A DNA stretch of 64,000 nucleotides from an uncultured Comamonadaceae bacterium. GTDB taxonomy: Bacteria > Pseudomonadota > Gammaproteobacteria > Burkholderiales > Burkholderiaceae_C. The stretch covers positions 78,797 through 142,796 of the forward strand of contig CAWVVY010000001.1 of assembly GCA_963933825.1 (NCBI GenBank), read 5' to 3'. Under the pieces are notes generated by a model that had not been told where the DNA came from, made no database searches, and saw only the letters and a list, made by a program, of their open reading frames with translations. The number at the start of each line of letters is the position of its first letter. The first letter of the stretch is position 1. Positions 45,516-64,000 of this stretch are shown here, piece by piece. The position numbers were made by a program, and so were the translations under genes.

Positions 45516-45543
45516 GCGGCAGTTGTCGGACTTAAGCAAGCAA

Positions 45544-47920: not shown

Positions 47921-47966
47921 GGATGGTGCAAGTGGTCATACAAGCCCGTGCCGTTCAAGCGCCAAC

Positions 47967-48170
47967 TTAAATGGGCACTTTACGTAGCATTTCCAAGCCA
48001 ATTTCGCCAGCTGCAATTTCGCGCAAAGCGGTTACGGCTGGTTTGTTTTTACTGTCAACTTTTGGTGCGTGACCTTGGCTCAACATACGAGCGCGGTAAG
48101 TTGCTGCCAAAACAAGTTGGAAGCGGTTGGGGATTTTCTCCAAACAGTCTTCAACGGTAATGCGGGCCAT
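47967..48170 (-). CDS. rpoZ: DNA-directed RNA polymerase omega subunit
   Basis: [10 protein letters not shown]... start. 67 aa. Confidence 0.93.
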
Positions 48171-48225
48171 GGTTGGACTCCAATCCAGACAAATCAAACA
48201 AAAAAACGGTGCGGTTCGTTGAAAG

Positions 48226-48245
48226 TGACACTTAAAGAAGTGTCA
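48226..48245 (-). terminator. 8-bp hairpin just downstream of gmk (weak terminator candidate)
   Basis: tgacactt-aaag-aagtgtca. Only a short U-run follows on the minus strand. Confidence 0.35.
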
Positions 48246-48249
48246 TATT

Positions 48250-48882
48250 TCAGTCGGTCAGACCCAGACCAGCAAAGGTTTCCGCACGCAAGCGGCGCTG
48301 GGCGACAAACTTGAGACGGTGGGCATGGACGATGGCTTTCAGGTCGAACAGCGCACGCTCGAATAGTTCATTGATTATAACGTAGTCAAAGTGTTGGGCT
48401 TGGTCAATTTCAATGCGGGCATTCGCAAGGCGCAGTTCAATCACATCGGTTGAGTCTTCAGCTCGGCGCTCAAGACGGGAGCGCAACTCGTCCCAACTGG
48501 GTGGCAGTATGAATATCAACACCGCGTTGGCATACAGGTCTTTGACTTGCAACGCGCCTTGGTAGTCAATCTCAAGCACCACATCCAAGCCTTTGGCGAT
48601 TTGCTCGTCAATGGCTTTTCGTGAGGTGCCATAGCTGTTGCTGTGCACCAAGGCCCACTCTAAAAACTCGTCTTGACTCACCATGGTCTCAAAAGTGGCG
48701 TCGTCTATAAAATGGTATTCACGCCCAGCTTTTTCTTGCCCACGGGGGGCGCGGGTGGTGTGCGACACGCTTGGGCTTACCCGCGAGTCCAACTCCATCA
48801 GTGCTCTGACTAGGCTGGACTTGCCTGTGCCGCTGGGCGCAGCGACGACAAAGAGGTTACCGGGATAAGTGGTGGTGGTCAT
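48250..48882 (-). CDS. gmk: Guanylate kinase
   Basis: Starting from [33 protein letters not shown] motif. Confidence 0.92.
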
Positions 48883-48889
48883 GGTGGAA

Positions 48890-49789
48890 TTATTCAATGT
48901 TTTGCACTTGTTCGCGCATTTGCTCAATCAGTACCTTCATGTCTACTGAAATGCGGGTCAGCGTCAGGCTAGAGGACTTGGAGCCCAAGGTGTTGGCTTC
49001 GCGGTGTAGCTCTTGAATGAGAAAGTCCAAACGTTTGCCCAATTCGCCACCTGTGGCCATCAGCCTATCAATCTCGTCGAGATGCGCGTCTAAGCGGTTG
49101 ATTTCTTCGGCCACATCTATGCGAATGGCAAAGGCAGTGGCTTCGCTTAAAGCCCTGTCACGCGCGGCTTGTAGGCTAGATTCATCTGCGCTCGCATGGG
49201 CGTCGCCCAAAGCGGCTTGCCACCGGTCTAAAAACTTTTGGCGCTGCAGCTCAACCAATTCAGGCACCAGTGGGGTGGCCTGTTTGACCAAAGCCCTCAA
49301 CTCGCCAGTTCTGCCGGTGATCATGACGCTGAGCCGTGAGCCTTCTTGAGCGCGGGCCTCAACCAAGCCGTTCGCCGCGGTTAGCAGCATGCTTTGCACA
49401 CGCTCGGGTAAATCGGCGTTGTTGTGCTCTGTGCCACCTGCCATTTGCATGATGCTGGAGACGCTGAGCGACGCAGCGTTTGGCAGCACCGACTGAATGG
49501 TGTTTTGCGCGTCCAGCAAGCGTTGCAATTCAGCCCGCTCTGGGACACGTGCCACAGTGCTGTGGCTGCGCTCAAGCCAAGCGCGCACCTCAACTTTACC
49601 GCGCTTGAGACGCTTGGTCAGGGCTTCGCGCAGGGCGGGCTCGCTGGCGCGCAGTTCGTCGCTGAGACGAAAGCTTAAATCTAGAAAGCGGCTATTGACC
49701 GAACGAATCTCCATGCCAAGTGCCACAGGACTGGCATCGCTAGGGGGGGATTGGCTGCTTGCGTAGCCTGTCATGCTGTAAACGGTCAT
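48890..49789 (-). CDS. yicC: YicC family stress-induced protein
   Basis: MTGYA... N-terminus and the C-terminal ...[12 protein letters not shown]...[15 protein letters not shown]. Confidence 0.88.
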
Positions 49790-49895
49790 GGCTTGGATGC
49801 GCGGTGGTGAGGCCGCAAATTTGCTAAGCCCTACATTATCGCAGGCCGCCGCCCGTTCAAAGATATGACATGATCACAGGCTACCTAGCAACCCA

Positions 49896-50657
49896 ATGAG
49901 TGTGTTTATGAGCTACCTACGCAATGCCAACCGCGCCGCAGATGCGCTGCGCCCCGTCACTATTACCCGCCAATTTACGGTGCATGCCGAGGGCTCTGTG
50001 CTGATTGAGTTTGGCCAAACCCGCGTGTTGTGCACGGCCTCTGTGGAAGAGCGCGTGCCGCCGCACAAAAAAGGCAGTGGTGAAGGCTGGGTGACCGCCG
50101 AATACGGCATGCTGCCGCGCGCCACCCATACCCGCAGCGCTCGCGAAGCCGCCAAAGGCAAGCAAAGTGGTCGCACACAAGAAATTCAACGTCTGATTGG
50201 TCGCTCGCTGCGCGCGGTGTTTGACTTGAAAGCGCTGGGCGAGCGCACCATCACGCTTGACTGCGATGTGTTGCAAGCCGATGGCGGTACCCGCACTGCC
50301 GCCATCACTGGTGCCTATGTCGCTGCATGCGACGCTGTAGCGTCCCTGTTGGCCAGCGGCGTGCTGACAGTCAGCCCCATTCGCGAACCAATTGCCGCTA
50401 TTTCGGTAGGTATTGTGGACGGTACGCCGCTGCTGGACTTGGAATACACCGAGGACTCAGCCTGCGATACAGACATGAACGTCGTCATGACTGGTGCAGG
50501 CCATTTTGTAGAAGTGCAGGGCACGGCAGAGGGCGCGGCATTTTCACGCGCAGAAATGGGTCTGCTGCTAGACCTCGCTGACAAGGGCATTGCCGAGCTG
50601 GTCACCATGCAACAAGCGGCCTTGGCCGTCCCAGTTGCTGGCGCAGCCAAACAATAG
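49896..50657 (+). CDS. rph: Ribonuclease PH
   Basis: Collinear with E. coli RNase PH ([35 protein letters not shown]). The start may be 49908. Confidence 0.93.
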
Positions 50658-50667
50658 GTCACGTGCC

Positions 50668-51300
50668 ATGAAACTGGTATTGGCTTCTAACAATGCGGGC
50701 AAATTGGCCGAGCTGCAAGCCTTGTTTGCCCCCTTGGGCGTGGAACTGGTGGCGCAAGGTGAGCTGGGTGTGCCAGAGGCCCCTGAGCCACATTGCACGT
50801 TTGTAGAAAACGCTTTGGCCAAAGCGCGCAACGCCGCTTTGCACACTGGGCTTCCTGCTATCGCAGACGATGCGGGCTTGTGTGTGGAAGCATTTGGCGG
50901 GCGGCCAGGCGTGGACACGGCCTACTACGCCACGCTGTTTGGCTATGCCAAAAGCGATGACAACAACGTGGTGGCCCTGTTAGAACAAATGGCAGGCATT
51001 GACGACAGGCGTGCAGCCTTGGTAAGCACGTTGGTCGCTGTGCGCAGCGCCACAGACCCCGAGCCACTCATTGCCGCTGGCCGTGCCGCTGGCCTCATTA
51101 CGCATGAGCCGATTGGTGACAACGGCTTTGGATTCGACCCCGTGATGTGGTTGCCAGAGTTTGAGCAAACCTTTGCCCAGTTGCCAGTTGAGGTTAAAAA
51201 CGCCAACAGCCATAGAGGCAAAGCCAGTCAGATTATGCTTGGCTTGATTCGCCAGCGATGGCTTGAGCCTCAACCAAGCCATCACCCAACCGCTGTCTAA
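50668..51300 (+). CDS. rdgB: Non-canonical purine NTP pyrophosphatase (dITP/XTP)
   Basis: Starting from MKLVLASNNAGKLAEL. FGYDP-like GFGFDP and SHRG motifs. Confidence 0.9.
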   Translation: MKLVLASNNAGKLAELQALFAPLGVELVAQGELGVPEAPEPHCTFVENALAKARNAALHTGLPAIADDAGLCVEAFGGRPGVDTAYYATLFGYAKSDDNNVVALLEQMAGIDDRRAALVSTLVAVRSATDPEPLIAAGRAAGLITHEPIGDNGFGFDPVMWLPEFEQTFAQLPVEVKNANSHRGKASQIMLGLIRQRWLEPQPSHHPTAV

Positions 51301-51326
51301 ACAGCAGCCACACACAGTTCTTACCT

Positions 51327-52565
51327 ATGGTGATTGAGATTCAGAGCAATGGCCAAGTCGGCGTTGCCAGTCCAGACGTGGTGCATATGATGCGCCCGGG
51401 TGTGTTGCAAATGGCAGCGCTGCCGCCATTGGCTTTGTACGTGCACATACCGTGGTGTCTGCGCAAATGCCCTTACTGCGACTTTAACTCCCATGAATGG
51501 GCGGCAGACCAAGCTCAAGCGTTGCCTGAGCGCGCCTATGTGGCAGCCGTGATGGCCGACTTAGAGGCTTCTTTGCCATTGGTGTGGGGACGCACGGTGC
51601 ACAGCATATTTATAGGGGGCGGCACGCCCAGCTTGTTTGCGCCTGAGGTCATTGGCGATTTATTGGGGCAAATTCGCGCCCGTTTAAAGCTCTCTGCTGA
51701 TTGCGAAATCACCATGGAAGCCAACCCAGGCACCTTCGAGCGCGAGCGCTTTAAAGCCTTTAGAGCCGCGGGCGTCACCCGGTTATCGGTGGGCGTACAA
51801 AGCTTCTCCGATGACGCGTTGCAACGCATTGGCCGCGTGCACGATGGCGCGCAGGCATTGGCCGCCGTTACTGAGGCGGTGCAGGCGTTTGACACCTGCA
51901 ACGTTGACATCATGTACGCCTTGCCAGGCCAAACGCTGGCCGAAAGTGCACGTGACATAGACACCGCACTGGGTCTGGGTGTGCCGCATATTTCGTTGTA
52001 CCACCTCACCATAGAACCCAATACCTTGTTTGCCGTTAAGCCGCCAGTGCTCCCAGAAGACGACGACGCCTACGCCATGCTAGACCTCATTACCGAGCGC
52101 ACCACCGCCAACGGCTTTGAGCGTTATGAGGTATCGGCTTACGCCCAAGCCGATCACGGCTGCTGGCACAACACCAATTATTGGCAGTTTGGCGATTACT
52201 TGGGCATTGGCGCTGGTGCGCACAGCAAGCTCACCTTTGCCCACCGCGTCACCCGACAAGTCCGCTTGCGCGATCCGCGCCGCTACATGCAAGCCGCCAT
52301 GCAGGGCAGGGCCTTGTCGTCCAGCACAGACGTGGCACTGGATGAGCTGAGCTTTGAGTTCATGCTCAACGCGCTGCGCTTGCGCAGTGGTTTTGAGCTC
52401 AGCCTGTACACAGAGCGGACAGGCTTGTCGGTGAGCCGCATACAAGCCGCACTAGAGACGGCACAGGCCAAAGGCTTGATCAGCCGAACCGGTAACCACA
52501 TCGCGCCAACCACACTCGGTTTTGACTTCCTGAGCGACTTGCAAAGCTTATTCTTGAGCGCGTAG
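51327..52565 (+). CDS. hemW: Radical SAM heme chaperone HemW (HemN-like)
   Basis: LYVHIPWCLRKCPYCDF radical-SAM CxxxCxxC motif. Start uncertain (an internal Met near 51387 is possible). Confidence 0.85.
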   Translation: MVIEIQSNGQVGVASPDVVHMMRPGVLQMAALPPLALYVHIPWCLRKCPYCDFNSHEWAADQAQALPERAYVAAVMADLEASLPLVWGRTVHSIFIGGGTPSLFAPEVIGDLLGQIRARLKLSADCEITMEANPGTFERERFKAFRAAGVTRLSVGVQSFSDDALQRIGRVHDGAQALAAVTEAVQAFDTCNVDIMYALPGQTLAESARDIDTALGLGVPHISLYHLTIEPNTLFAVKPPVLPEDDDAYAMLDLITERTTANGFERYEVSAYAQADHGCWHNTNYWQFGDYLGIGAGAHSKLTFAHRVTRQVRLRDPRRYMQAAMQGRALSSSTDVALDELSFEFMLNALRLRSGFELSLYTERTGLSVSRIQAALETAQAKGLISRTGNHIAPTTLGFDFLSDLQSLFLSA

Positions 52566-52656
52566 CAAAACATGGCTTTTAGTTGGTTAGAATATTGACT
52601 TGCTTTCACAAAAGCATGGTTGTGCAACACAGCCCTGTTGAAAGCGATAAATCGAC

Positions 52657-52744
52657 GGAAGAGTGGCAGAGTGGTCGATTGCACCGGTCTTGAAAACCGG
52701 CGTCCCGCAAGGGACCGTGAGTTCGAATCTCACCTCTTCCGCCA
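52657..52744 (+). tRNA. tRNA-Ser (anticodon UGA)
   Basis: Acceptor GGAAGAG/CTCTTCC, anticodon arm ACCGG-TC-TTGA-AA-ACCGG region with UGA, long variable arm (cgtcccgcaagggaccg), TTCGAAT T-loop, encoded CCA. 88 nt. Confidence 0.9.
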
Positions 52745-53302
52745 ATGATTAAGCGAATACGCCCTCTATAGGACGTTTTTTGTTTCTACATACCCAAAAA
52801 CATACCCAAGATTTTTGGCTGCTCACGGCTCATTGCCATCGGTCCGCGTATTTGGCTGCTGCCCTTTGGGGTCACGTTGCGATCTGTTTGCCACACCAGT
52901 TTCTGATGTTCTGCCTGCGCAGACCCCACCGTACCCCCACCCCCCATTTTCTCAAATGGGTCCCCCCAGAACACTTGTACAGTGTTCCGCTCAAACGATT
53001 TAAAAATCAGGGGATCTCTGTCTAAGGTTAGACACCCAGCTAGTGTGCGCATGGTGCGCGCCATGGTTTATCGAGGAGGGGGTCAGTTTAAACCTTTAGC
53101 CTTCTTAAGACCGTTTAACCACCAATCGATATAGTGAATCGCCCCGGGTTTCATGGGCGATATTTTCTCAGACTGGGCTTGCTACAGACACACCGAAACC
53201 GGAGTTACGCAGTGGATCCTTAGGGGAAACACTTAAGTCGCCTAAAGCTCAGGTTGATAGAATTTAATCCTCTTAAGATGTTTTCATTGTTGAGGAAATA
53301 TC

Positions 53303-54919
53303 ATGTTTGTGCTCGCTTGGTTATTTGGTATTGCGGCGACTCTGGTCTTTATTGCGATCTTAGTCACCTTTTTAAATCACTTCTATCGTAAATCCAGTCG
53401 TGACCTCGCGATCATTCGTACTGGATTCGGTGGTCAAAAAACCCTCATTTCAGGGGGTTGTTTGGCGTTGCCTTTCCTTCATAAAATTGACGAAATAAAT
53501 TTGCGAACTATTCGAATTGAAGTTCGTCGGATCGCTGAAAAATCGCTGATTACTGAAGATCGCATGCGAGTAGATGCCGAACTTGAGTTCTATGTGCGAG
53601 TACAGCCCACAATTGAAGGTGTCGCTACAGCAGCCCAGTCGCTTGGTTCAAAGGCATTCAATACTGAAGGTATTCGAAACTTGCTCGAAGGTCGATTCAT
53701 TGATGCTGTCCAAGCGATTGCCGCAAGTCTCACCATGGACCAAATCCATGAGAAAAGATCCCAATTTGTTGCTGAAATTTCCGCATTACTCAAAGATAAT
53801 TTGGCTGAAAATGGTGTGATTCTTAGCTCAGTCTCATTGACACGATTGGATCAGACATCATTTTCTTCATTGGATGAGAATAATGCATTTAACTCAGTAG
53901 GAATGCGACGATTAGCCGAAATAATTGCTGTTAACCGAAAAAAGAGAGTCCAGATCGAAGCAGAAGCAGATATTTCTGTTCTCCAAACTCAATTAGATGC
54001 CACCAAGCAACGACTGCATTTAAATCAGCAAGAAGAAGAGGCGCAAATTCGGCAGCGACTGGAACTTGATAAAATCAAAGCCCAGAGTGAGTCCCAGGCT
54101 GCTGAAGCTCGTGAAGTTGCCCAGGCCACTTCTGAATCTGCTCGAATTAGTCGAGAGCAAGAAATTCGGATGCGTGAAATTCAAAAACAACGTGAATTAA
54201 ATAAAATAGAAATAGAATCGCAGCTCAACTCAGCGATGCGGAAAATAGATAGCTCGATAACGTTAGCTGCGAAAAATGCTGAAGAGGCGAGTGCCCAGGC
54301 GGCAGCTGAATTAGCTCGAACAGCCGTTATATTGGCTCAAGAAAAAGTTCAAACTGATCGAGAGCGCGCGGTCGCCGACCGCTCACTTGAGATGGCTCTT
54401 AAGCGTGTGAAAGAAGCTGGTGAAGTCGCTGAAGCAAATGCAGCCTCTGAGACAACGGTGTTATTGAAGCACGCTAAGGCAGCAGCTGAAGCCACGCTCA
54501 CTCGTGCGCATGCAGAAAAAACACGTATGTTGGCTGAGTCCGAGGGGTCGCGTGCAATGATTGATGCTGAAAATGCTCTTAGCACACCTGTGCTAAATAT
54601 GAAGTTGGAGCAATACCGGCTTGACCGATTACCTGACATCATGGCGCAAATGATGAAGCCAGTCGAAAAAATAGACAGCATTCGTATCAACCATGTCAGT
54701 GGCTTTGGTGCGACTAGCGGTTCCGCTACGCTAGGCACTGGAGGTTCCAGTGTTCACGGTAGTGATAAGCCGCCGGTAACACAAGTCATGGACAGCATTT
54801 TAGGAATGGCACTTCAATTGCCCGCGCTAAAAAGTATCGGTGACCAAATTGGTGTCGACTTATCTGGTGCCATTGGCGCCGCTTCCAAGCCGACGCCTAA
54901 TAACGATCAAAAAACCTGA
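53303..54919 (+). CDS. Flotillin-like SPFH/band-7 family protein (YqiK/FloT-like)
   Basis: GAGGA RBS, N-terminal TM helix, SPFH domain, then a long Glu/Ala/Gln-rich coiled coil. 538 aa. Confidence 0.8.
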   Translation: MFVLAWLFGIAATLVFIAILVTFLNHFYRKSSRDLAIIRTGFGGQKTLISGGCLALPFLHKIDEINLRTIRIEVRRIAEKSLITEDRMRVDAELEFYVRVQPTIEGVATAAQSLGSKAFNTEGIRNLLEGRFIDAVQAIAASLTMDQIHEKRSQFVAEISALLKDNLAENGVILSSVSLTRLDQTSFSSLDENNAFNSVGMRRLAEIIAVNRKKRVQIEAEADISVLQTQLDATKQRLHLNQQEEEAQIRQRLELDKIKAQSESQAAEAREVAQATSESARISREQEIRMREIQKQRELNKIEIESQLNSAMRKIDSSITLAAKNAEEASAQAAAELARTAVILAQEKVQTDRERAVADRSLEMALKRVKEAGEVAEANAASETTVLLKHAKAAAEATLTRAHAEKTRMLAESEGSRAMIDAENALSTPVLNMKLEQYRLDRLPDIMAQMMKPVEKIDSIRINHVSGFGATSGSATLGTGGSSVHGSDKPPVTQVMDSILGMALQLPALKSIGDQIGVDLSGAIGAASKPTPNNDQKT

Positions 54920-54993
54920 TTCCTCTTCCACTTAAAACTCAGTTTTCTCCCTGAAACCAACGAGCTTCTCGCTCACTACTTAGGACTAACACC

Positions 54994-56229
54994 ATGAGCT
55001 TTTCACGACGTAAATTCTTGGCCGGAACTGGTACTGCAGGCCTAGCCGTAATGGGCGCGACAATTCCATTTGAGCTGGTTTTGGCACAAGGGTCGCCCAT
55101 TAAGCTTGGCTCAATTTTAGACAATTCGGGAAACCTCGATGCGTATGGAAAACCTATGGTGATGGCTACCACACTGGCGGTTGAAGAGCTTAATGCAGCT
55201 GGTGGTTTGCTAGGCCGAAAAATTGACTTGATTCAATATGACTCACAGTCAAATATGGCACTTTATACAAAATATGCACAGCAACTTACCCGCAGCGATA
55301 ATGTCGATGTGATGCATGGAGGTATTACGTCAGCTTCACGAGAAGCTGTTCGCCAAACGTTGCATCGTGCCAATACCTTGTATTTTTACAACGTACTGTA
55401 CGAAGGTGGGGTATGTGATCGTAATATTGTGTGTACAGGGACCACTCCCGCCCAGGCTGCAGAACCGATTGTTGAAGTTGCCCTCAAGGAATGGGGGAAT
55501 ACGGCATACATACTAGCAGCGGACTATAATTACGGTCAAATTACAGCAAAATGGCTTAAGCACTACATCACTCAAGGTGGTGGAAAAGTATTGCAAACTG
55601 ACTTCTTTCCGCTTGACGTGGCTGACTTTGGCTCGACTATCGCTAAAATTCAGCAAGCAAAACCCAAATTTTTGGTTGCAGCTTTAGTCGGTGGCGCGCA
55701 CATGTCATTCTTTCGCCAATGGGCGGCTACAGGAATGAATAAGAAAATACCCATGTGTTCAACAACATTTGGGGTTGGTAATGAGCATCTCGCGTTATCG
55801 GCAGCAGAAGGTGACGGTATCCTGATAGCGGGTAACTACAGCCAAGAAAATACAAACCCCTCCAACAAAGACTTCCTAGCTAAGTGGGCCAAACGTTTCG
55901 GAGATACGAAGCTCATACATGAAATTGCTGTTTCTCAGTACCAGGGCATCATGCTATGGGCCGAATGCGTTAAGAAGGCCGGATCACTCGACCGTGAAAA
56001 AATGCTGGCAGCGATCGAGTCAGGTGTCAGCATTCAGGGTCCGGGTGGGACGATTACCCTAGAGCCTAAAACACATCATGCTATATTGGACATTAATGTA
56101 ATGGAAGTGAAAAACCAAAAACTCACAATCAAGAAACAATATAAAGCTCGTATGCCATCAGATACACTTCAATTCTGTGATTTGCAGAAAAATCCAAAAG
56201 AAAATAAACAATTCGAAGTTAAAATTTAA
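54994..56229 (+). CDS. Urea/short-chain-amide-type (UrtA/AmiC/FmdD family) ABC substrate-binding protein with a twin-arginine motif
   Basis: MSFSRRKFLAGTG... signal. Collinear with the core UrtA in this window (IKLGSILDNSGNL / IKIGVLHSLSGTM; YNVLYEG / YPVQYEG). Confidence 0.85.
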   Translation: MSFSRRKFLAGTGTAGLAVMGATIPFELVLAQGSPIKLGSILDNSGNLDAYGKPMVMATTLAVEELNAAGGLLGRKIDLIQYDSQSNMALYTKYAQQLTRSDNVDVMHGGITSASREAVRQTLHRANTLYFYNVLYEGGVCDRNIVCTGTTPAQAAEPIVEVALKEWGNTAYILAADYNYGQITAKWLKHYITQGGGKVLQTDFFPLDVADFGSTIAKIQQAKPKFLVAALVGGAHMSFFRQWAATGMNKKIPMCSTTFGVGNEHLALSAAEGDGILIAGNYSQENTNPSNKDFLAKWAKRFGDTKLIHEIAVSQYQGIMLWAECVKKAGSLDREKMLAAIESGVSIQGPGGTITLEPKTHHAILDINVMEVKNQKLTIKKQYKARMPSDTLQFCDLQKNPKENKQFEVKI

Positions 56230-56241
56230 CAATAAATTGTT

Positions 56242-56267
56242 CCCCGGATTGTGTAATCCGGGGTTTT
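56242..56267 (+). terminator. Hairpin + T-run between the binding-protein and permease genes (partial terminator/attenuator)
   Basis: CCCCGGA-ttgtgtaa-TCCGGGG followed by TTTT. Confidence 0.6.
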
Positions 56268-56285
56268 CTATTTAAAAAGGTTGAT

Positions 56286-57152
56286 ATGGATTACGCGGCA
56301 GTTGTTACTTTGGAAATCATCTACATGATTGCCTTTTTGATTCTGACTAGCGCCGGATTAGCTGTCATTTTCGGAATGATGAAAGTCATTAATTTGGCGC
56401 ACGGTGAGTTCGTAATGGTTGGGGGCTACACTACGATCGCTTGTGCAAAAGCAAATATAAATATTTATTTTGCAATGCTCATTATAGCGCCAGTTGTCGT
56501 GGGTATATTAGGCTTATTGGTTGAGAGACTTGTGGTACGTCATCTTTACGGGCGTATGGTTGACACAATGTTAGCAACATGGGGGCTGTCGCTAATGATG
56601 GTCGGGATTGTGACATTTATTTTTGGAAACACAGCGGTCAGTGTACCAGCGCCTATTTCAGGCTATTCAGTCGGTCAGTTCCAAATGGGGGGATATAATT
56701 TGTTCATCATTGTAATTGCCGCATTATTAGTTGTTTCCATGTTTTTGGTAATGCGCTTTACACGACTCGGCCTTGTTGCGCGCGGAGCAATGCAGAGTGC
56801 TGATGTTGCATCCTCGTTGGGCTATGACCCTCAACGAGTGTACATGTGGACATTTGCTGTTGGATCCGCACTATCTGGTCTGGCTGGCGGTGTGCTTGCA
56901 CCACTGACCGGTTTACTGCCTTCCTCTGGTGCCGCTTATGTGGCCAAAGCTTTTATTACCGTCGTTACAGGCGGTGGGGCTTTCATTACCGGAACTTTGT
57001 CGAGTTCAATTATTTTTGGTTCCATCAACCAAGCTGTGTCTTTCGCCTCAACGCCCGTGATAGGGGAAGTCGCTATGCTGGCCATTGCCGTTGTGCTATT
57101 ACGTGTGATGCCGCAAGGTATTACAGGTCGATTTTTTCGTAACGCGACATGA
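56286..57152 (+). CDS. LivH/UrtB-type ABC permease (short form, 288 aa)
   Basis: The KVINLAHGE motif and multiple TM segments. Paralogous to the C-terminal half of the core UrtB. Confidence 0.88.
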   Translation: MDYAAVVTLEIIYMIAFLILTSAGLAVIFGMMKVINLAHGEFVMVGGYTTIACAKANINIYFAMLIIAPVVVGILGLLVERLVVRHLYGRMVDTMLATWGLSLMMVGIVTFIFGNTAVSVPAPISGYSVGQFQMGGYNLFIIVIAALLVVSMFLVMRFTRLGLVARGAMQSADVASSLGYDPQRVYMWTFAVGSALSGLAGGVLAPLTGLLPSSGAAYVAKAFITVVTGGGAFITGTLSSSIIFGSINQAVSFASTPVIGEVAMLAIAVVLLRVMPQGITGRFFRNAT

Positions 57153-58246
57153 TTGGTGACGCCGCCAATTTCTCCAGTGCAGGTCGTACTCAATGGGTCT
57201 GGATAGTTCCAGTAGTTATTCTGTTGTTGGTTTTGCCTGCTGTGTTAGATACGAGCACGCCCACACTGCTTGCTATCTGGGCTTTGTTTGCCTTATCGCT
57301 GGGTTTAATGTGGGGGTATGCAGGTATTCTCAGCTTTGGGCATGCTGCCTATTTTGGTCTCGGAGCCTATACCTACGCGATTACTGCCATGAATTTGGGT
57401 GAGAGCACGGCAGCTTGGATACTGGCTATTCTCCTCCCAGCTTTTGTGGCATCTCTCATTGGCGCAATGATGTTTTACGGTCGCATTAGCGATGTTTACA
57501 TGGGCGTAATCACTTTAGTTTTCTCGTTAATATTAGCAAAATTCATGGGAGCAACAGCTGGAGAAGCCTATCGCATCGGAAGTACTCGTTTAGGTGGGTT
57601 TAATGGTATTCCGGCATTTCCAATTATCAACGTGCCGGGTGACCCTTCTACACCAATTTTCGGGACGCCTTTTTATTATTTAGTCATCTGTTGTTTAGTG
57701 TTTTGCTATCTCATTGCGCGTTGGGTATTGTCTAGCGCTTTCGGTCGAATTTTACTGGGGATCCGCGAAAATGAGGCGCGTATCGAATTACTGGGCTACG
57801 ACGCAGCAGCTTACAAAACAGGTATTTTTTCGCTGTCAGCTGCTATGGCTGGCATGGCCGGTTGTCTTTACGCTAGTTGGGCAGAAATCGTCACACCAGC
57901 ATTGTTTGGGCTAGGGCAATCGGTTGAGGTCATCATCTGGGTAATCGCCGGTGGTCTTGGTACCTTGATGGGGCCAGTAATAGGGGCAGGACTACTCGGG
58001 TCACTCAAGTTATTACTTGGATCTCAAACGTATGTCGATAACTCGCTGGTTATTGGAAGTATTTTGGTATTGGTAGTCCTTGTGCTGCCTCGTGGTTTAT
58101 TGCCCACTTTGACAGGCTGGCGCCGACGACAGGATCACCGTAGTGTTCGTCGTGCTCGAACCAATAGTATGCGCCGACGTGGGGGTGAGACCCGCCGCCC
58201 TCAACAACGCGCTGCTGGCAACAACCAGAATGAGCAGGAGACATGA
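57149..58246 (+). CDS. LivM/UrtC-type ABC permease with an Arg-rich C-terminal tail
   Basis: Start overlaps the upstream stop (ATGA). Multi-TM product paralogous to the core UrtC. The last ~41 aa contain about a dozen Arg. Confidence 0.88.
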   Translation: MIGDAANFSSAGRTQWVWIVPVVILLLVLPAVLDTSTPTLLAIWALFALSLGLMWGYAGILSFGHAAYFGLGAYTYAITAMNLGESTAAWILAILLPAFVASLIGAMMFYGRISDVYMGVITLVFSLILAKFMGATAGEAYRIGSTRLGGFNGIPAFPIINVPGDPSTPIFGTPFYYLVICCLVFCYLIARWVLSSAFGRILLGIRENEARIELLGYDAAAYKTGIFSLSAAMAGMAGCLYASWAEIVTPALFGLGQSVEVIIWVIAGGLGTLMGPVIGAGLLGSLKLLLGSQTYVDNSLVIGSILVLVVLVLPRGLLPTLTGWRRRQDHRSVRRARTNSMRRRGGETRRPQQRAAGNNQNEQET

Positions 58247-58968
58247 GCGAAGTTATTGTCGAAACCCGTGATCTGTCTATGCGGTTTGGTGGTGTACTTG
58301 CCATCAACAATGTAAATTTTAATTTGCATGAGCGAGAAATGCGCTGCCTGATCGGTCCTAATGGTGCGGGTAAAAGTACCTTATTTAAATGCCTGACTGG
58401 GCAACAAAAAATCAATCACAGCAACGGCCACGTGTTCATCCGCGGACAGGATGTCACAGGCTGGCAGCCACATGAAATCGTGCAACTTGGTGTCGGAGTA
58501 AAAACTCAAGTACCTTCTCTCATGAACGGCTTGACAGTCTGGGAGAATCTGTGGCTGGCGGCTCGTCGGATCCATGGCAAACAGGGCGCATCGCATGAGG
58601 TTGACCGAATGGTCATCGAACTAGATTTACAAACCCATTTACGCCGGAATGTAGGAGAACTCGCGCATGGCCAACGTCAGATCGTGGAAATTGGTTTGGT
58701 GCTTTGTCAGCGTCCTAAGCTTGTATTGTTAGATGAACCAGCAGCTGGTATTACCGGAGCGGAAGCTGATCGGTTGGTTGAACTAATTCATAGTATCAAT
58801 CTGCAGGCTGCTGTAGTGGTAGTTGATCATGACATGAATTTTGTCCGAATGCTTGGTGGTTCTGTAACTGTGCTGCACCAGGGAGCAGTGTTGATGGAGG
58901 GCACCGCCGACGCGGTTATGAACAATGAAAAAGTGCGGGAGGTATACATTGGCAACCGGGCGAAATGA
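58243..58968 (+). CDS. LivG/UrtD-type ABC ATP-binding protein
   Basis: GPNGAGKST, LAHGQRQIVEI and LVLLDEPAAG. ATGA overlap with the permease gene. Confidence 0.9.
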   Translation: MSEVIVETRDLSMRFGGVLAINNVNFNLHEREMRCLIGPNGAGKSTLFKCLTGQQKINHSNGHVFIRGQDVTGWQPHEIVQLGVGVKTQVPSLMNGLTVWENLWLAARRIHGKQGASHEVDRMVIELDLQTHLRRNVGELAHGQRQIVEIGLVLCQRPKLVLLDEPAAGITGAEADRLVELIHSINLQAAVVVVDHDMNFVRMLGGSVTVLHQGAVLMEGTADAVMNNEKVREVYIGNRAK

Positions 58969-61472
58969 TCATGGCTGAAAAACTCCTATCTAATCCAGTC
59001 GATTTTGAGCACGCTGATGTGGTGCTCAAGGTATCCGAACTTCACGCCGGCTACGGACATGTTCCCGTTTTGAATGGCGTCAATCTGGAAGTCCGCGAGG
59101 GTGAGGCGGTTGGCGTTGTAGGTCACAACGGCATGGGTAAAACAACGCTGCTAAAAGTTATCATGGGGTTGATTGTGTCTACCGGTGGCCGTATCGAACT
59201 CGATGGAACCGATGCCACAGACTTCGCTGCACATCAGCGCGCACAAATGGGTATTGGCTATGTGCCTCAGGGTCGAGGTATTTTGCCTGGTCTTACCGCA
59301 CTTGAAAACATCCGGATGGCCTGGCGCGAAGACATCGGGGAGACTGAAGAGCAGTCTGTCGAACGCGTAGTCGATCAGTTCCCTCGTTTAGGGGCTTTGC
59401 TGGACCGCAAGGGTGGATCGTTGTCAGGTGGAGAACAGCAGATTCTAGCGCTAGCTCGTGCTCTTGTTCCGAGGCCTTGGCTGCTGCTGCTGGACGAGCC
59501 CAGCGAAGGTATACAGCCATCCATCGTGCAAGAAATTGGAAGTACTTTGTCTAGCTTGCGTGACGAGTTTGGGTTGGCATTGGTCATTGTTGAACAAAAT
59601 TTGGATCTAGTGCTGGATGTGTCGAACCGCGTGGTTGTGTTCGAGCGCGGCCATATCATCAAGGAATTGAAGACTGACGATTTGCGTGGTGGTGGCTTAA
59701 GTGAACTATTGGGAATGGGTTCTGCGCGGATATCGAACCGATCGAATGACGAAGGTAGCAAGCCATTTGAAGCCGTTCATATGCCAAAGCGCCAAAGCGA
59801 GGAACATAACCAATCACAAATCGAAAACACTGGCTACACCGATCTCAGCAGTAAGAGCATTACCAGCCACCAGCTTCGCAACAAAGCTACTTCAATTCAC
59901 AAACGGTCGCATTCAAACGCAATCGATTCAATGGCTAAAGCCACCGAGGGAATCATGTCTACCGTCAAACGTCCTACTGTCGATCAGATGCACACTATCG
60001 TCGAGTCACTACACATGAATATGTCATCGCGTGAAGTGGCCGAGTATTTGGAAATCATGGAAGGCACTTTCCAGTCCTACGACAGGCTGACTCAGTTGCC
60101 GGACAACCTTCCGCCCGTTCGCTATCCGCGTACCCCTGGTATCAAACCTAGTCCTGCTGACAACCCCCTCAACGCCTGGGCAGTCAAGAGCGAAGTTCAC
60201 GGTGCTGTGCATGGGCCGCTGTCTGGCAAGCGCGTGGTACTTAAGGACAATATTTGTCTGGCAGGGGTGCCGCTTATGAATGGTGCGTCGTCGCTTGAAG
60301 GTTATGTGCCCGATCTTGACGCCACGCTTGTCACGCGTATTCTGGACGCAGGGGGTACCATCGTTGGTAAGGCGCATTGCGAGTATTTTTGTTTGTCCGG
60401 CGGCAGCCACACCTGCGCAGCTGGTCCCGTGCACAACCCTTATCGCTACGGTTATTCTGCGGGTGGCTCATCATCGGGTTCAGCTTCGCTTGTAGGCTCC
60501 GGTGAGATTGGTATGGCTATAGGGGGTGACCAAGGTGGATCGATCAGAATGCCTGCGTCTTGGTGTGGCATCTACGGTTTAAAGCCAACCCATGGCTTGG
60601 TGCCCTACACCGGCGTTATGCCAATCGAAGCCACTATCGACCACGCTGGACCTATGACAGCCACAGTAGCTGACAATGCGCTGCTACTTGAAGCCATTGC
60701 CGGTGCCGACGGTTTGGACCCACGGCAGTCCAACGTGCGCGTTGACCGCTACACTGCCGCGCTTGGAAGGGGTGTTTCAGGACTTCGCGTCGGTGTATTG
60801 ACCGAAGGTTTCAACCGCCTCGAAAGCGAGCCCGATGTCGACAAGAAAGTGCATCAAGCTGCTGACCGATTGCGTGCGATGGGTGCAATTGTTGAAGACG
60901 TTTCTGTACCCATGCACATGGATGGCCCGGCTATTTGGACAGCGATTGCAATTGAAGGCCTTCAAGCCCAAATGATGAACGGCAATGGAATGGGCTTTAA
61001 CTGGAAGGGCTTGTACACCACCAGCTTACTGGATGCGCACTCTGCGTGGCGCGCCCGTGCTGATGAGTTGTCACCATCGCTCAAAGTATCCATGATGGCT
61101 GGTGAGTATTTCATTAAAAACTACCGTGGACATTTCTATGCTAAGGCGCAAAATTTAAGCCGAGTACTAGCCAATGCCTACGACGCCGCCTTGTCGCGCT
61201 ATGACTTACTGCTTTTGCCTACGCTGCCGATGAAGGCCACGCCAATTCCGCCATCTAATGCGCCGCTCAAATTGATCGTCCAACGCGCGCTCGAAATGCT
61301 GGGTAATACCTGCCCATTCAACGTAACGGGGCACCCCGCTATGAGTGTGCCTTGCGGCATGTCCAACGGCCTACCTATCGGAATGCAGCTGGTCGCCAAG
61401 CATTGGGACGAGTCCACCATTTATCGCGCTGCCCATGCCTTCGAGCAGTCGGGCGACTGGCGAAATTTTTAA
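58965..61472 (+). CDS. Fusion protein: LivF/UrtE-type ABC ATP-binding domain (aa 1-~251) + low-complexity linker + amidase-signature hydrolase (aa ~331-835)
   Basis: One uninterrupted 835-codon frame. The ATPase part has GHNGMGKTT, LSGGEQQILALARAL and LLLLDEPSEGIQPSI. The amidase part has LKDNI, GGSSSGS and GGSIRMPAS. Confidence 0.8.
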   Translation: MIMAEKLLSNPVDFEHADVVLKVSELHAGYGHVPVLNGVNLEVREGEAVGVVGHNGMGKTTLLKVIMGLIVSTGGRIELDGTDATDFAAHQRAQMGIGYVPQGRGILPGLTALENIRMAWREDIGETEEQSVERVVDQFPRLGALLDRKGGSLSGGEQQILALARALVPRPWLLLLDEPSEGIQPSIVQEIGSTLSSLRDEFGLALVIVEQNLDLVLDVSNRVVVFERGHIIKELKTDDLRGGGLSELLGMGSARISNRSNDEGSKPFEAVHMPKRQSEEHNQSQIENTGYTDLSSKSITSHQLRNKATSIHKRSHSNAIDSMAKATEGIMSTVKRPTVDQMHTIVESLHMNMSSREVAEYLEIMEGTFQSYDRLTQLPDNLPPVRYPRTPGIKPSPADNPLNAWAVKSEVHGAVHGPLSGKRVVLKDNICLAGVPLMNGASSLEGYVPDLDATLVTRILDAGGTIVGKAHCEYFCLSGGSHTCAAGPVHNPYRYGYSAGGSSSGSASLVGSGEIGMAIGGDQGGSIRMPASWCGIYGLKPTHGLVPYTGVMPIEATIDHAGPMTATVADNALLLEAIAGADGLDPRQSNVRVDRYTAALGRGVSGLRVGVLTEGFNRLESEPDVDKKVHQAADRLRAMGAIVEDVSVPMHMDGPAIWTAIAIEGLQAQMMNGNGMGFNWKGLYTTSLLDAHSAWRARADELSPSLKVSMMAGEYFIKNYRGHFYAKAQNLSRVLANAYDAALSRYDLLLLPTLPMKATPIPPSNAPLKLIVQRALEMLGNTCPFNVTGHPAMSVPCGMSNGLPIGMQLVAKHWDESTIYRAAHAFEQSGDWRNF

Positions 61473-61510
61473 CAAATCAAGAATTTTGAAAAAGTAGGAA
61501 CCAGGAAAAC

Positions 61511-63298
61511 GTGACTAACAATCCATTTTTATCAAATTGGGTTAAAAGCGGTGCAGACGGAAAGCTGAGACCGCCCGGCTCGGCATCGTTTGTTGCCGGC
61601 CCAACGGATGTGTCTTTACATTTCATGACTATTCCGCAACTGTTGGACCGCACCGTCTCACTCTATGGCTCGCGGGACGCAGCGGTTTTTGTTTCGCAAA
61701 ATCAACGTCTCAGTTGGTATGACCTAAAAAAACAGGCCGACGACATGGCGGCTGCCTTGCTATCTATGGGCATACGGCGTGGTAACCGTGTCGGTATTTG
61801 GGCTCCAAATCGGCTGGAATGGTTGCTGACTCAATTTGCCACGGCCCGTATTGGTGCGGTGCTGGTCAATATAAATCCCGCTTACAAAAGCAGCGAACTC
61901 GAGTACGCCCTTAATAAGGTCCGCTGCCGAATGCTAGTAATGGCGCGCGGCCACAAAAACAATAATTACTTGGACATACTTCGTGAACTGGCACCTGAAA
62001 TTGATAGGCCTGGCCAGGCAGGTGATTTGACATCACTTCGGCTGGAACATCTGAAGCACGTCATCTTGTTAGACGAACTTTCATTGTCTGCACATGACGC
62101 AGCTAAGCTGCCGGTTCCCGTGCGTGCCATGCGTTTTTTTGACTTTCTACGCCAGGCCGGTCCTGCGCACCACGCGCGCTTAAAGGGTTTGTCCGCTGAA
62201 CTTGACCCAGACGAGGCGATCAACATTCAGTTCACCAGCGGCACCACGGGTAACCCGAAGGGGGCAACTTTGTCTCACTTCAATATTGTCAATAACGCTA
62301 GGTTTGCGGCAAAGTCTATGGCGTTGACTCATATTGACCGCATGTGTATACCAGTGCCGCTTTATCACTGCTTTGGTATGGTACTCGGGGTACTTTCATG
62401 CACCGCTGTGGGTGCTGCCATGGTATTCCCAGGAGAAGGATTTGATGCAGCTGCAACCCTCCAGTCTTTACAAAAGCAGCGTTGCACTGCACTGCACGGC
62501 GTTCCGACCATGTTCATCGCCATGTTGGCTGAACCCACGATTAGTAATCTCGACTTTAGTGCTTTAAGAACAGGCATCATGGCCGGAGCGCCGTGTCCTG
62601 TCGAAACTATGCGGGCGGTTATGCGCACGCTAAACATGACCCAAATTACCATTGGTTATGGCATGACCGAAACCTCACCGATTTCTTTTCAGTCTCACAT
62701 ATCCGACCCGGTCGAGCGCCGTGTATCTACTGTCGGCCGCATCCAGCCGCATGTGCAGGCCAAGGTGATTGACGAACATGGACGAATGGTATCAGTCGGA
62801 ACGCCGGGCGAATTGTGTGTTCGAGGTTACCTAGTAATGCGTTCGTATTGGGAAGATGCCGGGCAGACTGCTGAGACAATTGATGAGTCTGGCTGGTTGC
62901 GCACTGGCGACCTAGCAACCATAGATGCCGAAGGTTATTGCAATATCGTCGGTCGCGTTAAGGATATGTTGATTCGCGGCGGCGAAAATGTCTTCCCGCA
63001 AGAAATTGAAAACCTCCTGATGCTGCACCCCAAGGTTCTTGATGCGCAGGTGTTCGGGGTTCCAGATGTTAAATACGGAGAAGAAATCACCGCTTGGTTG
63101 ATCCTTCGACCTGGTCAGTCCGCTGAGCCCGAAGAGTTTGTGGAGTTTTGCCGTGCCCGAATGGCTTATCACAAGGTACCGCGTTATGTGCGTTTTGTGA
63201 GGGAGTTTCCGCTCACAGCCACGGGAAAACCTCAAAAATACCTGATGCGTCAAAGTATGATTACAGAACTCGGTTTACACGTACGACAGACGGCCTGA
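61511..63298 (+). CDS. AMP-dependent acyl-CoA synthetase/ligase (medium-chain, ACSF2-like)
   Basis: GTG start preceded by AGGAA. Motifs IQFTSGTTGNPKGATLSH, GYGMTETSP, TGDLA and ...GKPQK. Confidence 0.88.
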   Translation: MTNNPFLSNWVKSGADGKLRPPGSASFVAGPTDVSLHFMTIPQLLDRTVSLYGSRDAAVFVSQNQRLSWYDLKKQADDMAAALLSMGIRRGNRVGIWAPNRLEWLLTQFATARIGAVLVNINPAYKSSELEYALNKVRCRMLVMARGHKNNNYLDILRELAPEIDRPGQAGDLTSLRLEHLKHVILLDELSLSAHDAAKLPVPVRAMRFFDFLRQAGPAHHARLKGLSAELDPDEAINIQFTSGTTGNPKGATLSHFNIVNNARFAAKSMALTHIDRMCIPVPLYHCFGMVLGVLSCTAVGAAMVFPGEGFDAAATLQSLQKQRCTALHGVPTMFIAMLAEPTISNLDFSALRTGIMAGAPCPVETMRAVMRTLNMTQITIGYGMTETSPISFQSHISDPVERRVSTVGRIQPHVQAKVIDEHGRMVSVGTPGELCVRGYLVMRSYWEDAGQTAETIDESGWLRTGDLATIDAEGYCNIVGRVKDMLIRGGENVFPQEIENLLMLHPKVLDAQVFGVPDVKYGEEITAWLILRPGQSAEPEEFVEFCRARMAYHKVPRYVRFVREFPLTATGKPQKYLMRQSMITELGLHVRQTA

Positions 63299-63321
63299 GT
63301 CATATTAAAAGAAAGAATAAC

Positions 63322-64000
63322 GTGACAGAAGATCAACTGGCTTTTCTGGACGCTTATGCGTTGGCTGGCTTGTTACATAGTAAACAACTGTCACCTGTTG
63401 AAGTCACGCAGATGATGCTGAGTCGTATCGAACGCGTCGACAAGACCTTCCTCTCCTACGCCACAATTACCTATGAAACAGCCCTAGCACAGGCGCGTTT
63501 GGCCGAGGCTATGATCATGCGCCGCCAAATACTCAGCCCTCTTCACGGGGTTCCTATCGCATTGAAGGACCTGTGTTTTACTCAGGGTATAGTCACCGCA
63601 GCCGGAATGCCGATGATGCGCGATTTTGTTCCCGTTTATGATGGAACCGTGGTGAAAAGACTACGAGAAGCAGGCACGGTGCTGCTGGGTAAGCTGACCA
63701 TGACTGAGGCTGCCTTCGCCGACCACCACCCCGACGTACCGCCACCGATTAATCCGTGGCATAGAGACCACTGGTCTGGCGCATCATCAAGCGGTTCCGG
63801 GGTGGCTGTAGCTGCCGGTTTGTGCTTTGCTGCCATTGGTACTGACACAGGTGGTTCGATTCGATTCCCCTCTGCAGCTAATGGCGTAACTGGCCTCAAG
63901 CCGACTTGGGCACGGGTTCCTGTGTACGGTGCTTTCGAATTGGCAGCTTCGTTGGACCACATCGGACCAATGGCTAGAACAGCGATCGACTGCGGTCATA
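63322..64000 (+). CDS. Amidase-signature family hydrolase (GatA-like), N-terminal part; continues beyond window
   Basis: My own translation from GTG 63322: VTEDQLAFLDAY...GVPIALKDL...WSGASSSGSGVAV...GTDTGGSIRFPSAANG...LDHIGPMAR. The frame is open to the window end. It is not in the ORF track because there is no stop. Confidence 0.85.
   Translation, partial: MTEDQLAFLDAYALAGLLHSKQLSPVEVTQMMLSRIERVDKTFLSYATITYETALAQARLAEAMIMRRQILSPLHGVPIALKDLCFTQGIVTAAGMPMMRDFVPVYDGTVVKRLREAGTVLLGKLTMTEAAFADHHPDVPPPINPWHRDHWSGASSSGSGVAVAAGLCFAAIGTDTGGSIRFPSAANGVTGLKPTWARVPVYGAFELAASLDHIGPMARTAIDCGH

Follow-up and report, generated by a model that had tools for sequence, protein, structure and literature searches.

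A probable amide-utilization cassette with a fused importer ATPase and amidase behind tRNA-Ser(UGA) of an uncultured Comamonadaceae bacterium

ATP-binding cassette (ABC) importers are usually viewed as distinct from the enzymes that process what they import. A locus in a 64,000-nucleotide stretch of DNA from an uncultured Comamonadaceae bacterium (GenBank assembly GCA_963933825.1, contig CAWVVY010000001.1, positions 78,797 to 142,796; called the window below) raises the question of whether importer and enzyme can be joined in one polypeptide and, if so, what such a system takes up. The housekeeping genes rph, rdgB and hemW are followed there by a tRNA-Ser(UGA) gene and then by eight genes, every one on the + strand, and in one of these genes the second ATPase of a five-component importer (binding protein, two permeases, two ATPases) is fused to an amidase. 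The region is probably an acquired island with a conserved cassette for the use of a small primary amide other than urea, in which the fused importer-amidase would act together with a coenzyme A (CoA) ligase and a flotillin scaffold. A first-pass annotation of the window had listed a co-oriented flotillin, importer, ATPase-amidase fusion, ligase and second amidase, and every listed element was found; a base-by-base check also agrees with the ATGA overlaps that it placed at 57149, 58243 and 58965. The elements of the cassette are as follows.

53303-54919, + strand: flotillin, with an N-terminal membrane anchor and the Pfam domains Band_7 (SPFH) and Flot
54994-56229, + strand: binding protein of the UrtA/AmiC family (Pfam Peripla_BP_5/6), with a twin-arginine translocation (Tat) signal
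56242-56263, + strand: terminator-like hairpin just after the binding-protein gene, from a consensus scan
56286-57152, + strand: UrtB-like permease (Pfam BPD_transp_2; UrtB models below cut-off)
57149-58246, + strand: UrtC-like permease (Pfam BPD_transp_2; UrtC models below cut-off), with an ATGA overlap
58243-58968, + strand: ATPase 1, UrtD-like (Pfam ABC_tran)
58965-61472, + strand: 835-amino-acid (aa) ATPase-amidase fusion, with the ABC ATPase at residues 1-255 and the amidase at residues 331-835
58965-59729, + strand: ATPase 2 (UrtE-like), the N-terminal domain of the fusion
59730-59954, + strand: low-complexity linker of the fusion, 75 codons
59946-59957, + strand: internal Shine-Dalgarno-like GAGGGA and the ATG that is the first codon of the amidase domain
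59955-61472, + strand: amidase-signature amidase, the C-terminal domain of the fusion
61511-63298, + strand: acyl-CoA ligase of the ANL superfamily, with a GTG start (Pfam AMP-binding and AMP-binding_C)
63322-64000, + strand, running off the window end: second amidase-signature amidase, first 226 of 466 codons, with Lys/Ser/Ser motifs

The fusion was followed through a scan of one genome per species, which gave at least 80 loci with fusions that are 65-84% identical; 80 loci enter the counts for the reading frame, and 54, 62 and 53 had enough flanking sequence for the counts of neighbouring genes given below. ATPase and amidase form one uninterrupted frame in 80/80 loci. The linker between them varies from 40 to 122 aa, with 35 distinct lengths, and its majority-residue fraction is only 0.34, compared to 0.79 in the ATPase half and 0.87 in the amidase half. 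The other two frames of the linker are free of stops in only 22/80 and 41/80 loci. Of the linkers with less than 0.62 G+C content (GC), 21/21 have an open fusion frame, but the other frames are open in just 2/21 and 3/21. The persistence of one open frame through a drifting linker, with stops in the other frames, argues that the fusion is under selection. An artefact of assembly or annotation was also considered, and is ruled out by the single open reading frame (ORF) in all 80 loci and in many independent assemblies.

More than 120 protein clusters at 90% identity, 818-859 aa long, hold both domains. An exhaustive search at 50% clustering returned essentially one more full-length fused representative (56% identity), all the other relatives being free amidases of about 500 aa; since nearly all relatives at this level are free amidases, the fusion marks one clade. 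Judged from these comparisons, the fusion is ancient within the clade and under selection. The ATPase motifs (Walker A GHNGMGKT at residue 53, signature LSGG at 153 and Walker B LLLLDE at 173) are intact and invariant in the alignment, as is the Ser-cisSer-Lys triad of the amidase (Lys427, Ser502 and Ser526). The amidase half scores 796 bits against the NCBIfam model PRK07235 (cut-off 545), covering profile positions 2-505 of 506, and its closest solved structure is PDB 3A1K (E = 1e-138, residues 28-497 of 504). An AlphaFold2 model of the fusion, built on a 14-sequence alignment, had a mean pLDDT of 43.8 with the amidase core unfolded, and was uninformative on linker disorder or docking.

The amidase domain also appears to have a start of its own. 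Its first codon is ATG in 79/80 loci, and upstream of this internal ATG there is a conserved GG at -9/-8 (80/80 and 79/80) and a G at -6 (73/80), with a Shine-Dalgarno-like motif in 71/80 loci. The G at -6 is kept even though the encoded residue varies (G, E, V, A or D), which points to a constraint at the RNA level, namely a Shine-Dalgarno site. Tethered and free amidase are thus probably both made. Some NCBI metagenome-assembled genomes (MAGs) carry a 505-aa 'amidase' that begins at the internal Met and is at least 90% identical to the fused clade (P0051, P0063); the accession numbers leave no room for a UrtE-like protein, so that either the internal start was used in annotation or the ATPase half is broken.

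Unfused relatives were found in eight plasmid clusters, in Agrobacterium, Tistrella, Shinella, Pleomorphomonas, Aureimonas, Paracoccus, Thioclava and Rhizobium, where two ATPase genes are followed by a 504-aa amidase (47-59% identity). In unfused relatives the ATPase gene ends in a stop codon, and a spacer of 83-181 nt and a canonical Shine-Dalgarno sequence precede the equivalent Met, an arrangement that shows a possible origin of the fusion. Flotillin is absent from all eight plasmid clusters, as is an adjacent ligase (0/8 each). Nitrile hydratase lies beside 3/8 of them; the Agrobacterium cluster also has aldoxime dehydratase and a block of AMP-binding and beta-oxidation genes, and the Paracoccus and Thioclava clusters have an AmiC-like protein and an ANTAR regulator.

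Most of the fused species loci belong to Burkholderiales (Limnohabitans, Rubrivivax, Methylibium, Rhizobacter), and others come from MAGs labelled Bradyrhizobium/Xanthobacteraceae, Granulosicoccus and SAR324. The fused cassette is also present on plasmids of cultured strains, namely pTHAF37_e of Sulfitobacter sp. THAF37 and a plasmid of S. alexandrii AM1-D1. The order in Sulfitobacter is MarR, AmiC-like protein, flotillin, binding protein, two permeases, ATPase, a 793-aa fused 'amidase' and ligase.

What does the importer take up? The Urt models are the best family matches of all five transporter parts, but every score falls under the curated NCBIfam cut-off: 231/493 and 324/495 bits (score/cut-off) for the UrtA models on the binding protein, 198/250 and 229/374 for UrtB and 185/296 and 254/576 for UrtC on the respective permeases, 241/304 for UrtD on ATPase 1, and 252/286 for UrtE on ATPase 2. 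A canonical urea system is present in the same window, with urtABCDE at 11617-17342, each gene above its cut-off, and ureC at 19334-21052 on the - strand, which passes the equivalog cut-off. The first-pass annotation had placed this system upstream of the cassette, and the measured distance is 35-41 kb. The canonical UrtB (window 12914-14584) is 556 aa long, and the UrtB profile covers residues 262-552 only; an N-terminal extension of about 260 aa lies outside the profile.

The structure of UrtA with urea (PDB 8HIC) revealed eight strictly conserved contacts, W120, S122, Y141, Q144, E146, Y190, N246 and S274, with hydrogen bonds to urea from S122, Q144, Y190 and N246 (PMC10392092). The W120A protein does not bind urea, and mutations of Q144, N246 and W120 strongly reduce or abolish binding (PMC10392092). 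The contact numbering was checked on the 8HIC sequence and the corresponding columns were taken from the alignment. These eight positions read I, S, Y, L, E, Y, V and G in the cassette protein, so that four urea contacts are lost (W120I, Q144L, N246V and S274G), whereas the canonical UrtA of the window keeps 8/8. The wider pocket signature reads I-S-Y-L-E-Y-Y-V-G in the cassette versus W-S-Y-Q-E-Y-F-N-S in UrtA. The cassette pattern of contacts is found in 58/58 fused-clade species (57/58 at position 144), and also in Sulfitobacter; of the unfused relatives, 5/8 have it and 3/8 keep Gln144. The claim of the first-pass annotation that this is a paralogous importer for a substrate other than urea is thus borne out by the scores below cut-off and by the loss of four of the eight contacts.

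The retained contacts match S85, Y104 and Y150 of the acetamide sensor AmiC in an alignment to PDB 1PEA, and the positions of UrtA Q144 and N246 are occupied in AmiC by P107 and a Val, both non-polar, where the cassette has Leu and Val. We take AmiC S85, Y104 and Y150 to be residues that contact the amide. The cassette pocket thus appears to keep the contacts to the C=O and to one NH2 group, with smaller hydrophobic side chains in place of the contacts to the second NH2 of urea. Hydrophobic residues at this site are what a monoamide, R-CONH2, would need, and the pocket points to an R that may be small and aliphatic or aryl-aliphatic. The binding protein carries the twin-arginine signal SRRKFL. 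Its closest structure is PDB 8TG1, on which a literature search gave nothing useful.

Flotillin is a conserved member of the cassette rather than incidental content. Its gene lies directly 5' of the binding-protein gene, on the same strand, in 50/54 loci and is missing in 4/54, and the distance between the two genes ranges from 35 to 353 bp; a consensus scan found no terminator-like site between them in the window. Flotillin identity co-varies with that of the other cassette genes (rho 0.66-0.87). Both fused Sulfitobacter plasmid clusters have the gene (2/2), compared to none of the unfused clusters. Its identity to YqiK-type proteins is about 33-40%. Outside the cassette, its nearest relatives are flotillins of Paracoccus denitrificans PD1222 and Phaeobacter (about 40% identity), which occur as classical YqiJ/NfeD-flotillin pairs with no transporter near. 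An adjacent gene of the NfeD/YqiJ type is absent here: the leader upstream of the window flotillin holds only a 92-aa ORF, and the upstream gene in Sulfitobacter is AmiC-like.

The ligase gene lies directly 3' of the fusion in 57/62 loci. The window ligase is 55% identical to the Sulfitobacter cassette ligase and 23% to the one in Agrobacterium, and it scores 767 against PRK12583 (cut-off 832). Its closest structures are feruloyl-CoA, oxalyl-CoA and fatty-acyl ligases (E = 1e-68 to 1e-63), matched over the C-terminal two thirds only. The second amidase, which is complete (466 aa) at 10695-12095 of a contig identical to the window (L003), is the least conserved member; it follows the ligase in 21/53 loci and sits elsewhere in 8, and its matches are AtzE-like, GatA-like and biuret-hydrolase-like. 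Naming the substrate from the ligase or the second amidase was tried and dropped, as the closest structures (including GatA) are too distant.

Recurrent neighbours of the cassette include MarR (25 loci), a signal-less AmiC-like protein (24 loci), enoyl-CoA hydratase, SDR, a second ligase, and thiolase with DUF35. The MarR and AmiC-like genes form a pair 5' of flotillin (L007 1603-3312, L179 1689-3329; 24-25/80 loci), which would be a sensor-regulator pairing unlike the classical AmiC-AmiR. In Limnohabitans-like genomes a block of four genes, for a second ligase, a thiolase, a DUF35 OB-fold protein and an enoyl-CoA hydratase, comes directly after the cassette (L005 15808-19622; L006), and the same block is found inverted, beyond debris, in the window's own lineage (gene list of contig ERZ4132402). 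With this block, the downstream pathway might include a retro-Claisen or retro-aldol step.

The hairpin at 56242-56263 lies inside the presumed operon. Its stem is 9 bp long with 6 GC pairs and is followed by a T-run, and it may act as an attenuator, so that more binding protein than membrane components would be made. Domain and tblastn searches of the whole window found no homologue of an integrase, MarR, an AmiC-like sensor, nitrile hydratase or aldoxime dehydratase; the first-pass annotation had likewise reported neither regulator nor integrase in the window.

How did the cassette come to lie behind the tRNA gene? The features at the junction are as follows.

52657-52744, + strand: tRNA-Ser(UGA), called by ARAGORN; the integration target
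52731-52744, + strand: 14-bp attachment (att) core CACCTCTTCCGCCA, the 3' end of the tRNA
52745-53302: island leader, 558 bp, present in all near-identical copies of the cassette
52786-53064, - strand: 92-aa ORF in the leader, with no family match and no Pfam hit

A metagenome scan with HemW identified a close relative (L010; HemW 99% identical) whose DNA is 96.4% identical to window 41330-52745 (11.4 kb) and collinear up to the tRNA-Ser end. Homology breaks exactly at 52744/52745, and the sequence beyond is unrelated: the relative has a terminator hairpin after the tRNA, and then a large ORF for a repetitive surface protein. This ORF (L010 11419-13989) encodes at least 683 aa, is rich in Ser/Thr/Ala and of surface type, and runs off the contig end. 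Past the same tRNA, still other genes are found in L012, a more distant relative (about 74% identity), so that three relatives have three different contents behind tRNA-Ser(UGA). The region had been called accessory in the first-pass annotation, and indeed neither L010 nor L012 has the cassette at tRNA-Ser.

Other contigs carry copies of the cassette at 99.96-100% identity (L003, L090/L091 and L093). To the left of the cassette in L090/L091 and in L093 a P4-type integrase element takes the place of the tRNA, and both elements join the cassette at CACCTCTTCCGCCA, the 14 bases that end tRNA-Ser. Their integrases share only 35% identity, and the element flanks are unrelated. The use of the same 14-bp core by two unrelated integrase elements argues that the core is a working att site. 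The elements are later insertions between tRNA and cassette, and the cassette is not their cargo; these integrases were considered as the cassette's own, which is ruled out by their low identity, unrelated flanks and shared core. The two different P4-like elements occupy L090 1-7521 (and L091) and L093 28-1864. One of them consists of an integrase, a 255-aa protein, AlpA, two small ORFs and a 578-aa DNA_pol_A protein; an IS3-type element comes next. Right of the cassette, other copies have an IS3-type element and a weak FGGY-kinase-like remnant (E = 0.0017).

The contig L003 reaches 1.9 kb further than the window. Decayed FGGY/glycerol-kinase-like fragments occupy its positions 12123-13110 on the - strand (about 64750-65740 in window-equivalent coordinates; FGGY_C, E = 0.0017), and right of the second amidase there is a tRNA-like 3' fragment (...GGTCACAGGTTCGAACCCTGTACCACCA) that has neither an ARAGORN nor an Rfam call. 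These fragments may be debris of earlier integrations. The gene list of ENA contig ERZ4132402 (18.9 kb), which extends about 7 kb past L003, contains no integrase; it has enoyl-CoA hydratase, the DUF35 protein, thiolase and the second ligase, all inverted. The leader itself was considered as a remnant of MarR/AmiC-like regulator genes, and this was ruled out: 52745-53302 has no Pfam match and no MarR or AmiC-like remnants.

Base composition changes at the same point. GC is 0.551 for 1-52656 versus 0.493 for 52745-64000, with a minimum of 0.45-0.49 at 53-59 kb, and the drop is most pronounced over the 5' half of the cassette. GC at third codon positions (GC3) is 0.38-0.46 from flotillin to the first ATPase and 0.52-0.57 in the remaining cassette genes, compared to 0.59-0.69 in six core genes of the window. 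Windowed GC and GC3 thus confirm the drop in GC immediately past tRNA-Ser(UGA) that the first-pass annotation had described. In three other loci (L005, L007 and L009), where the fusion is 73-84% identical and the flanks are unrelated, the GC of the cassette equals that of the host. Host-like GC in those loci and deviant GC here fit a long residence there and a recent import here. Along the cassette (window 53303-64000) GC3 climbs steadily from 0.38 in flotillin to 0.57 in the amidase half, and windowed GC likewise climbs, from 0.49 to about 0.53-0.56, in an 86%-identical copy in a Porticoccaceae-labelled MAG (L191); this gradient could reflect a mosaic origin or an expression gradient. The junction, the variable content and the composition support the view that 52745-64000 is the tRNA-proximal left part of a horizontally acquired island in a marine bacterium.

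The proposed working of the cassette can be summarized as follows. The Tat-exported binding protein would capture a small non-urea amide in the periplasm, and the five-part importer would carry it inward. The amidase, on the flexible 75-residue tether of the second ATPase, would split the amide to acid and ammonia at the cytoplasmic face of the transporter. The ligase would then turn the acid into a CoA thioester for enzymes of the beta-oxidation type, whose genes adjoin the cassette in many relatives, and the second amidase would be an optional extra. This pathway of import, deamidation and thioesterification had been proposed in the first-pass annotation, and it is supported by synteny in at least 80 species and by the match of the amidase to the Rhodococcus N-771 enzyme (E = 1e-138). 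The most likely role of flotillin is to scaffold or cluster this complex of transporter and enzyme in the membrane. The internal ribosome-binding site and ATG probably also give a free amidase, which could pair with the tethered copy, because the closest solved homologue, the Rhodococcus N-771 amidase, is presumably a homodimer (we take it to be a soluble one, encoded in a nitrile hydratase operon). A bolder version of the model, to which we give only tentative credence, is that the enzyme-coupled importer represents a new membrane metabolon, with a dimer of tethered and free amidase, dedicated clustering by flotillin, and physical coupling of import and hydrolysis.

Five alternative explanations were considered. 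If the region were ordinary core genome behind a tRNA gene, one would expect what is indeed seen in the window part, namely no integrase, transposase or att repeat, and a 3' half with GC of 0.52-0.55, near host GC. This is nevertheless the least probable of the alternatives, hardly to be entertained given that homology to a 96% relative breaks exactly at the tRNA end, that three relatives have three contents there, that two integrase elements use the core, that GC3 is 0.38-0.57 versus 0.59-0.69, and that an IS3-type element and an FGGY-like remnant lie to the right in other copies. Scarcely more credible is a second urea or ureide system for nitrogen scavenging only, in which urea or a derivative (biuret, allophanate or a ureido acid) is imported and the amidases free ammonia. 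The Urt models as best matches of the five transporter parts, and the AtzE-, GatA- and biuret-hydrolase-like matches of the second amidase, speak for such a system; however, all Urt scores are under cut-off, half of the urea contacts are gone, no gene for urease, urea carboxylase or allophanate hydrolase is linked, the fused amidase belongs to the Rhodococcus N-771 type and not to the allophanate-hydrolase type, and the CoA ligase that follows the fusion in 57/62 loci needs a carboxylic acid product. The cassette could also be the downstream half of a nitrile/aldoxime pathway, with nitrile hydratase elsewhere in the genome and a nitrile as the external substrate. Unfused homologues do lie within aldoxime dehydratase/nitrile hydratase clusters, and the amidase is closest to an enzyme that is presumably nitrile-hydratase-linked. 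We consider this improbable, since neither nitrile hydratase nor aldoxime dehydratase was found in the window, in the annotated flanks of the two fused Sulfitobacter clusters, or among the called genes of L005, L007 and L009, and the pocket retains the amide C=O and NH2 contacts common with AmiC.

Two further alternatives concern the fusion and the flotillin. The fusion might be merely formal, with the internal start supplying the working amidase and a read-through product of no importance that reflects a tolerated loss of the ATPase stop codon. The nearly invariant internal ATG, the Shine-Dalgarno-like motif and the nucleotide-level constraint would all be expected on that account, as would the stop, 83-181-nt spacer and canonical Shine-Dalgarno sequence at the equivalent site of unfused relatives and the 505-aa 'amidase' annotated in some MAGs. 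Neutral read-through would, however, be expected to break or frameshift many times at 65-84% protein identity, and the frame is open in every one of 80 species over 35 linker lengths, with stops in the other frames at most loci; a purely formal fusion is therefore unlikely, though less so than a nitrile pathway. A more serious contender, although still doubtful, is that flotillin stands outside the mechanism, either as a hitch-hiker that became fixed a single time, in the ancestor of the fused clade, or as membrane protection from amphiphilic amides or acids. The fused clade is probably of single origin, so that 52/56 versus 0/8 are not independent events, and the gene is missing in 4/54 loci. 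Yet its position and orientation are kept from 53% to 100% fusion identity through many changes of flank, and SAR324-labelled MAGs as well as Alpha-, Beta- and Gammaproteobacteria retain it. Its divergence follows that of the cassette, it has lost its NfeD/YqiJ partner, and it lies 35-353 bp from the binding-protein gene with no terminator-like site between them in the window.

Several observations weigh against the preferred reading of an island-borne amide cassette with a fused importer-amidase and a flotillin scaffold. The link between flotillin and fusion may come from a single ancestral event, in which case the counts are not independent, and the conserved internal Shine-Dalgarno site and ATG leave room for free amidase as the principal product. 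Among characterised proteins the ligase has no close relative, and the substrate of the cassette is not readable from the sequence. The usual regulators, MarR and the AmiC-like sensor, are missing from the window copy. With regard to the island, there is no second copy of CACCTCTTCCGCCA in the window, and neither an integrase of the cassette's own nor the right island end was found in the window or in the 1.9 kb beyond it (L003). Finally, the L010 contig stops 2.6 kb past the tRNA, and the cassette could sit elsewhere in that genome.

If the amide reading holds, an importer subunit and the first catabolic enzyme as one polypeptide in at least 80 species would be a natural test case for substrate hand-over. 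To our knowledge, the clients of the flotillin family are mostly unknown, and the fixed partnership in this cassette offers a concrete candidate client for a bacterial flotillin. The genes currently carry names such as 'urea' or 'branched-chain amino acid' transporter and 'amidase', and the pocket signature I-S-Y-L-E-Y-Y-V-G sets the cassette apart from true urea transporters, which matters when nitrogen-cycle genes are interpreted in metagenomes from aquatic habitats (Limnohabitans, Roseobacter-group and other lineages). The cultured carriers Sulfitobacter sp. THAF37 and S. alexandrii AM1-D1 make these ideas directly testable.

All parts of the cassette come from known families, amide uptake combined with an amidase is a known logic, and a tRNA-linked island is ordinary; the interesting part is the cassette as a whole. 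A literature search returned no description of the ATPase-amidase fusion, of a flotillin without NfeD partner tied to it, or of the pocket signature. Like other tRNA-linked islands with P4-type tyrosine integrases, the region shows insertion at a tRNA 3' end, deviant composition, a variable site and a reused 14-bp core, but neither an integrase nor a distal repeat can be assigned to the cassette island. The cassette flotillin shares with other bacterial flotillins (E. coli YqiK, Bacillus FloT) the membrane anchor and the SPFH and flotillin domains; unlike its nearest other relatives, it has no adjacent NfeD/YqiJ gene and is fixed upstream of an ABC importer.

The transporter resembles UrtABCDE in component order, protein families and best-scoring models, and differs in its sub-cut-off scores and in the replacement of W120, Q144, N246 and S274; a true urtABCDE is also present in the window. 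AmiC of the Pseudomonas aeruginosa aliphatic amidase operon (PDB 1PEA) shares the binding-protein fold and an amide-type pocket, but AmiC is a cytoplasmic sensor paired with AmiR whereas the cassette protein is a binding protein with a Tat signal. FmdDEF of Methylophilus, on which a literature search gave nothing useful, is an amide-linked Urt-like transporter, and AmiE and FmdA lie outside the amidase-signature family. In Pseudomonas, urt genes occur beside formamidase (PMC13209695). Both the Pseudomonas arrangement and FmdDEF share with the cassette an Urt-like importer coupled to an amidase, but the AmiC, FmdDEF and formamidase-linked systems have no fusion, flotillin or ligase.

The closest parallels are on the catabolic side. 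The Rhodococcus sp. N-771 amidase (3A1K/3A1I) has the same N-terminal helical region and Ser-cisSer-Lys triad, and is a free-standing chain of 521 residues where the window has the C-terminal domain of an ABC ATPase. For Pseudomonas chlororaphis B23, with the genes oxdA-amiA-nhpAB-acsA, a route that leads from an amide through the acid to acyl-CoA has been published (Hashimoto et al. 2005, J Biol Chem 280:8660). This system and the unfused clusters of Agrobacterium, Tistrella and Rhizobium share with the cassette an amidase from one and the same amidase-signature subfamily, after which the acid is thioesterified. Compared to such aldoxime-nitrile clusters, the window cassette lacks aldoxime dehydratase and nitrile hydratase, and has the fusion, flotillin and a different ligase lineage. 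The clusters on pAtAF1_95 (Agrobacterium), pTM2 (Tistrella) and pMK-3 (Rhizobium) have a homologous five-part transporter, 47-59% identical to the fusion halves in the corresponding proteins; they carry MarR and either an AmiC-like sensor or a substrate-binding-domain gene, whereas the window copy has no regulator and joins its second ATPase and its amidase in a single chain.

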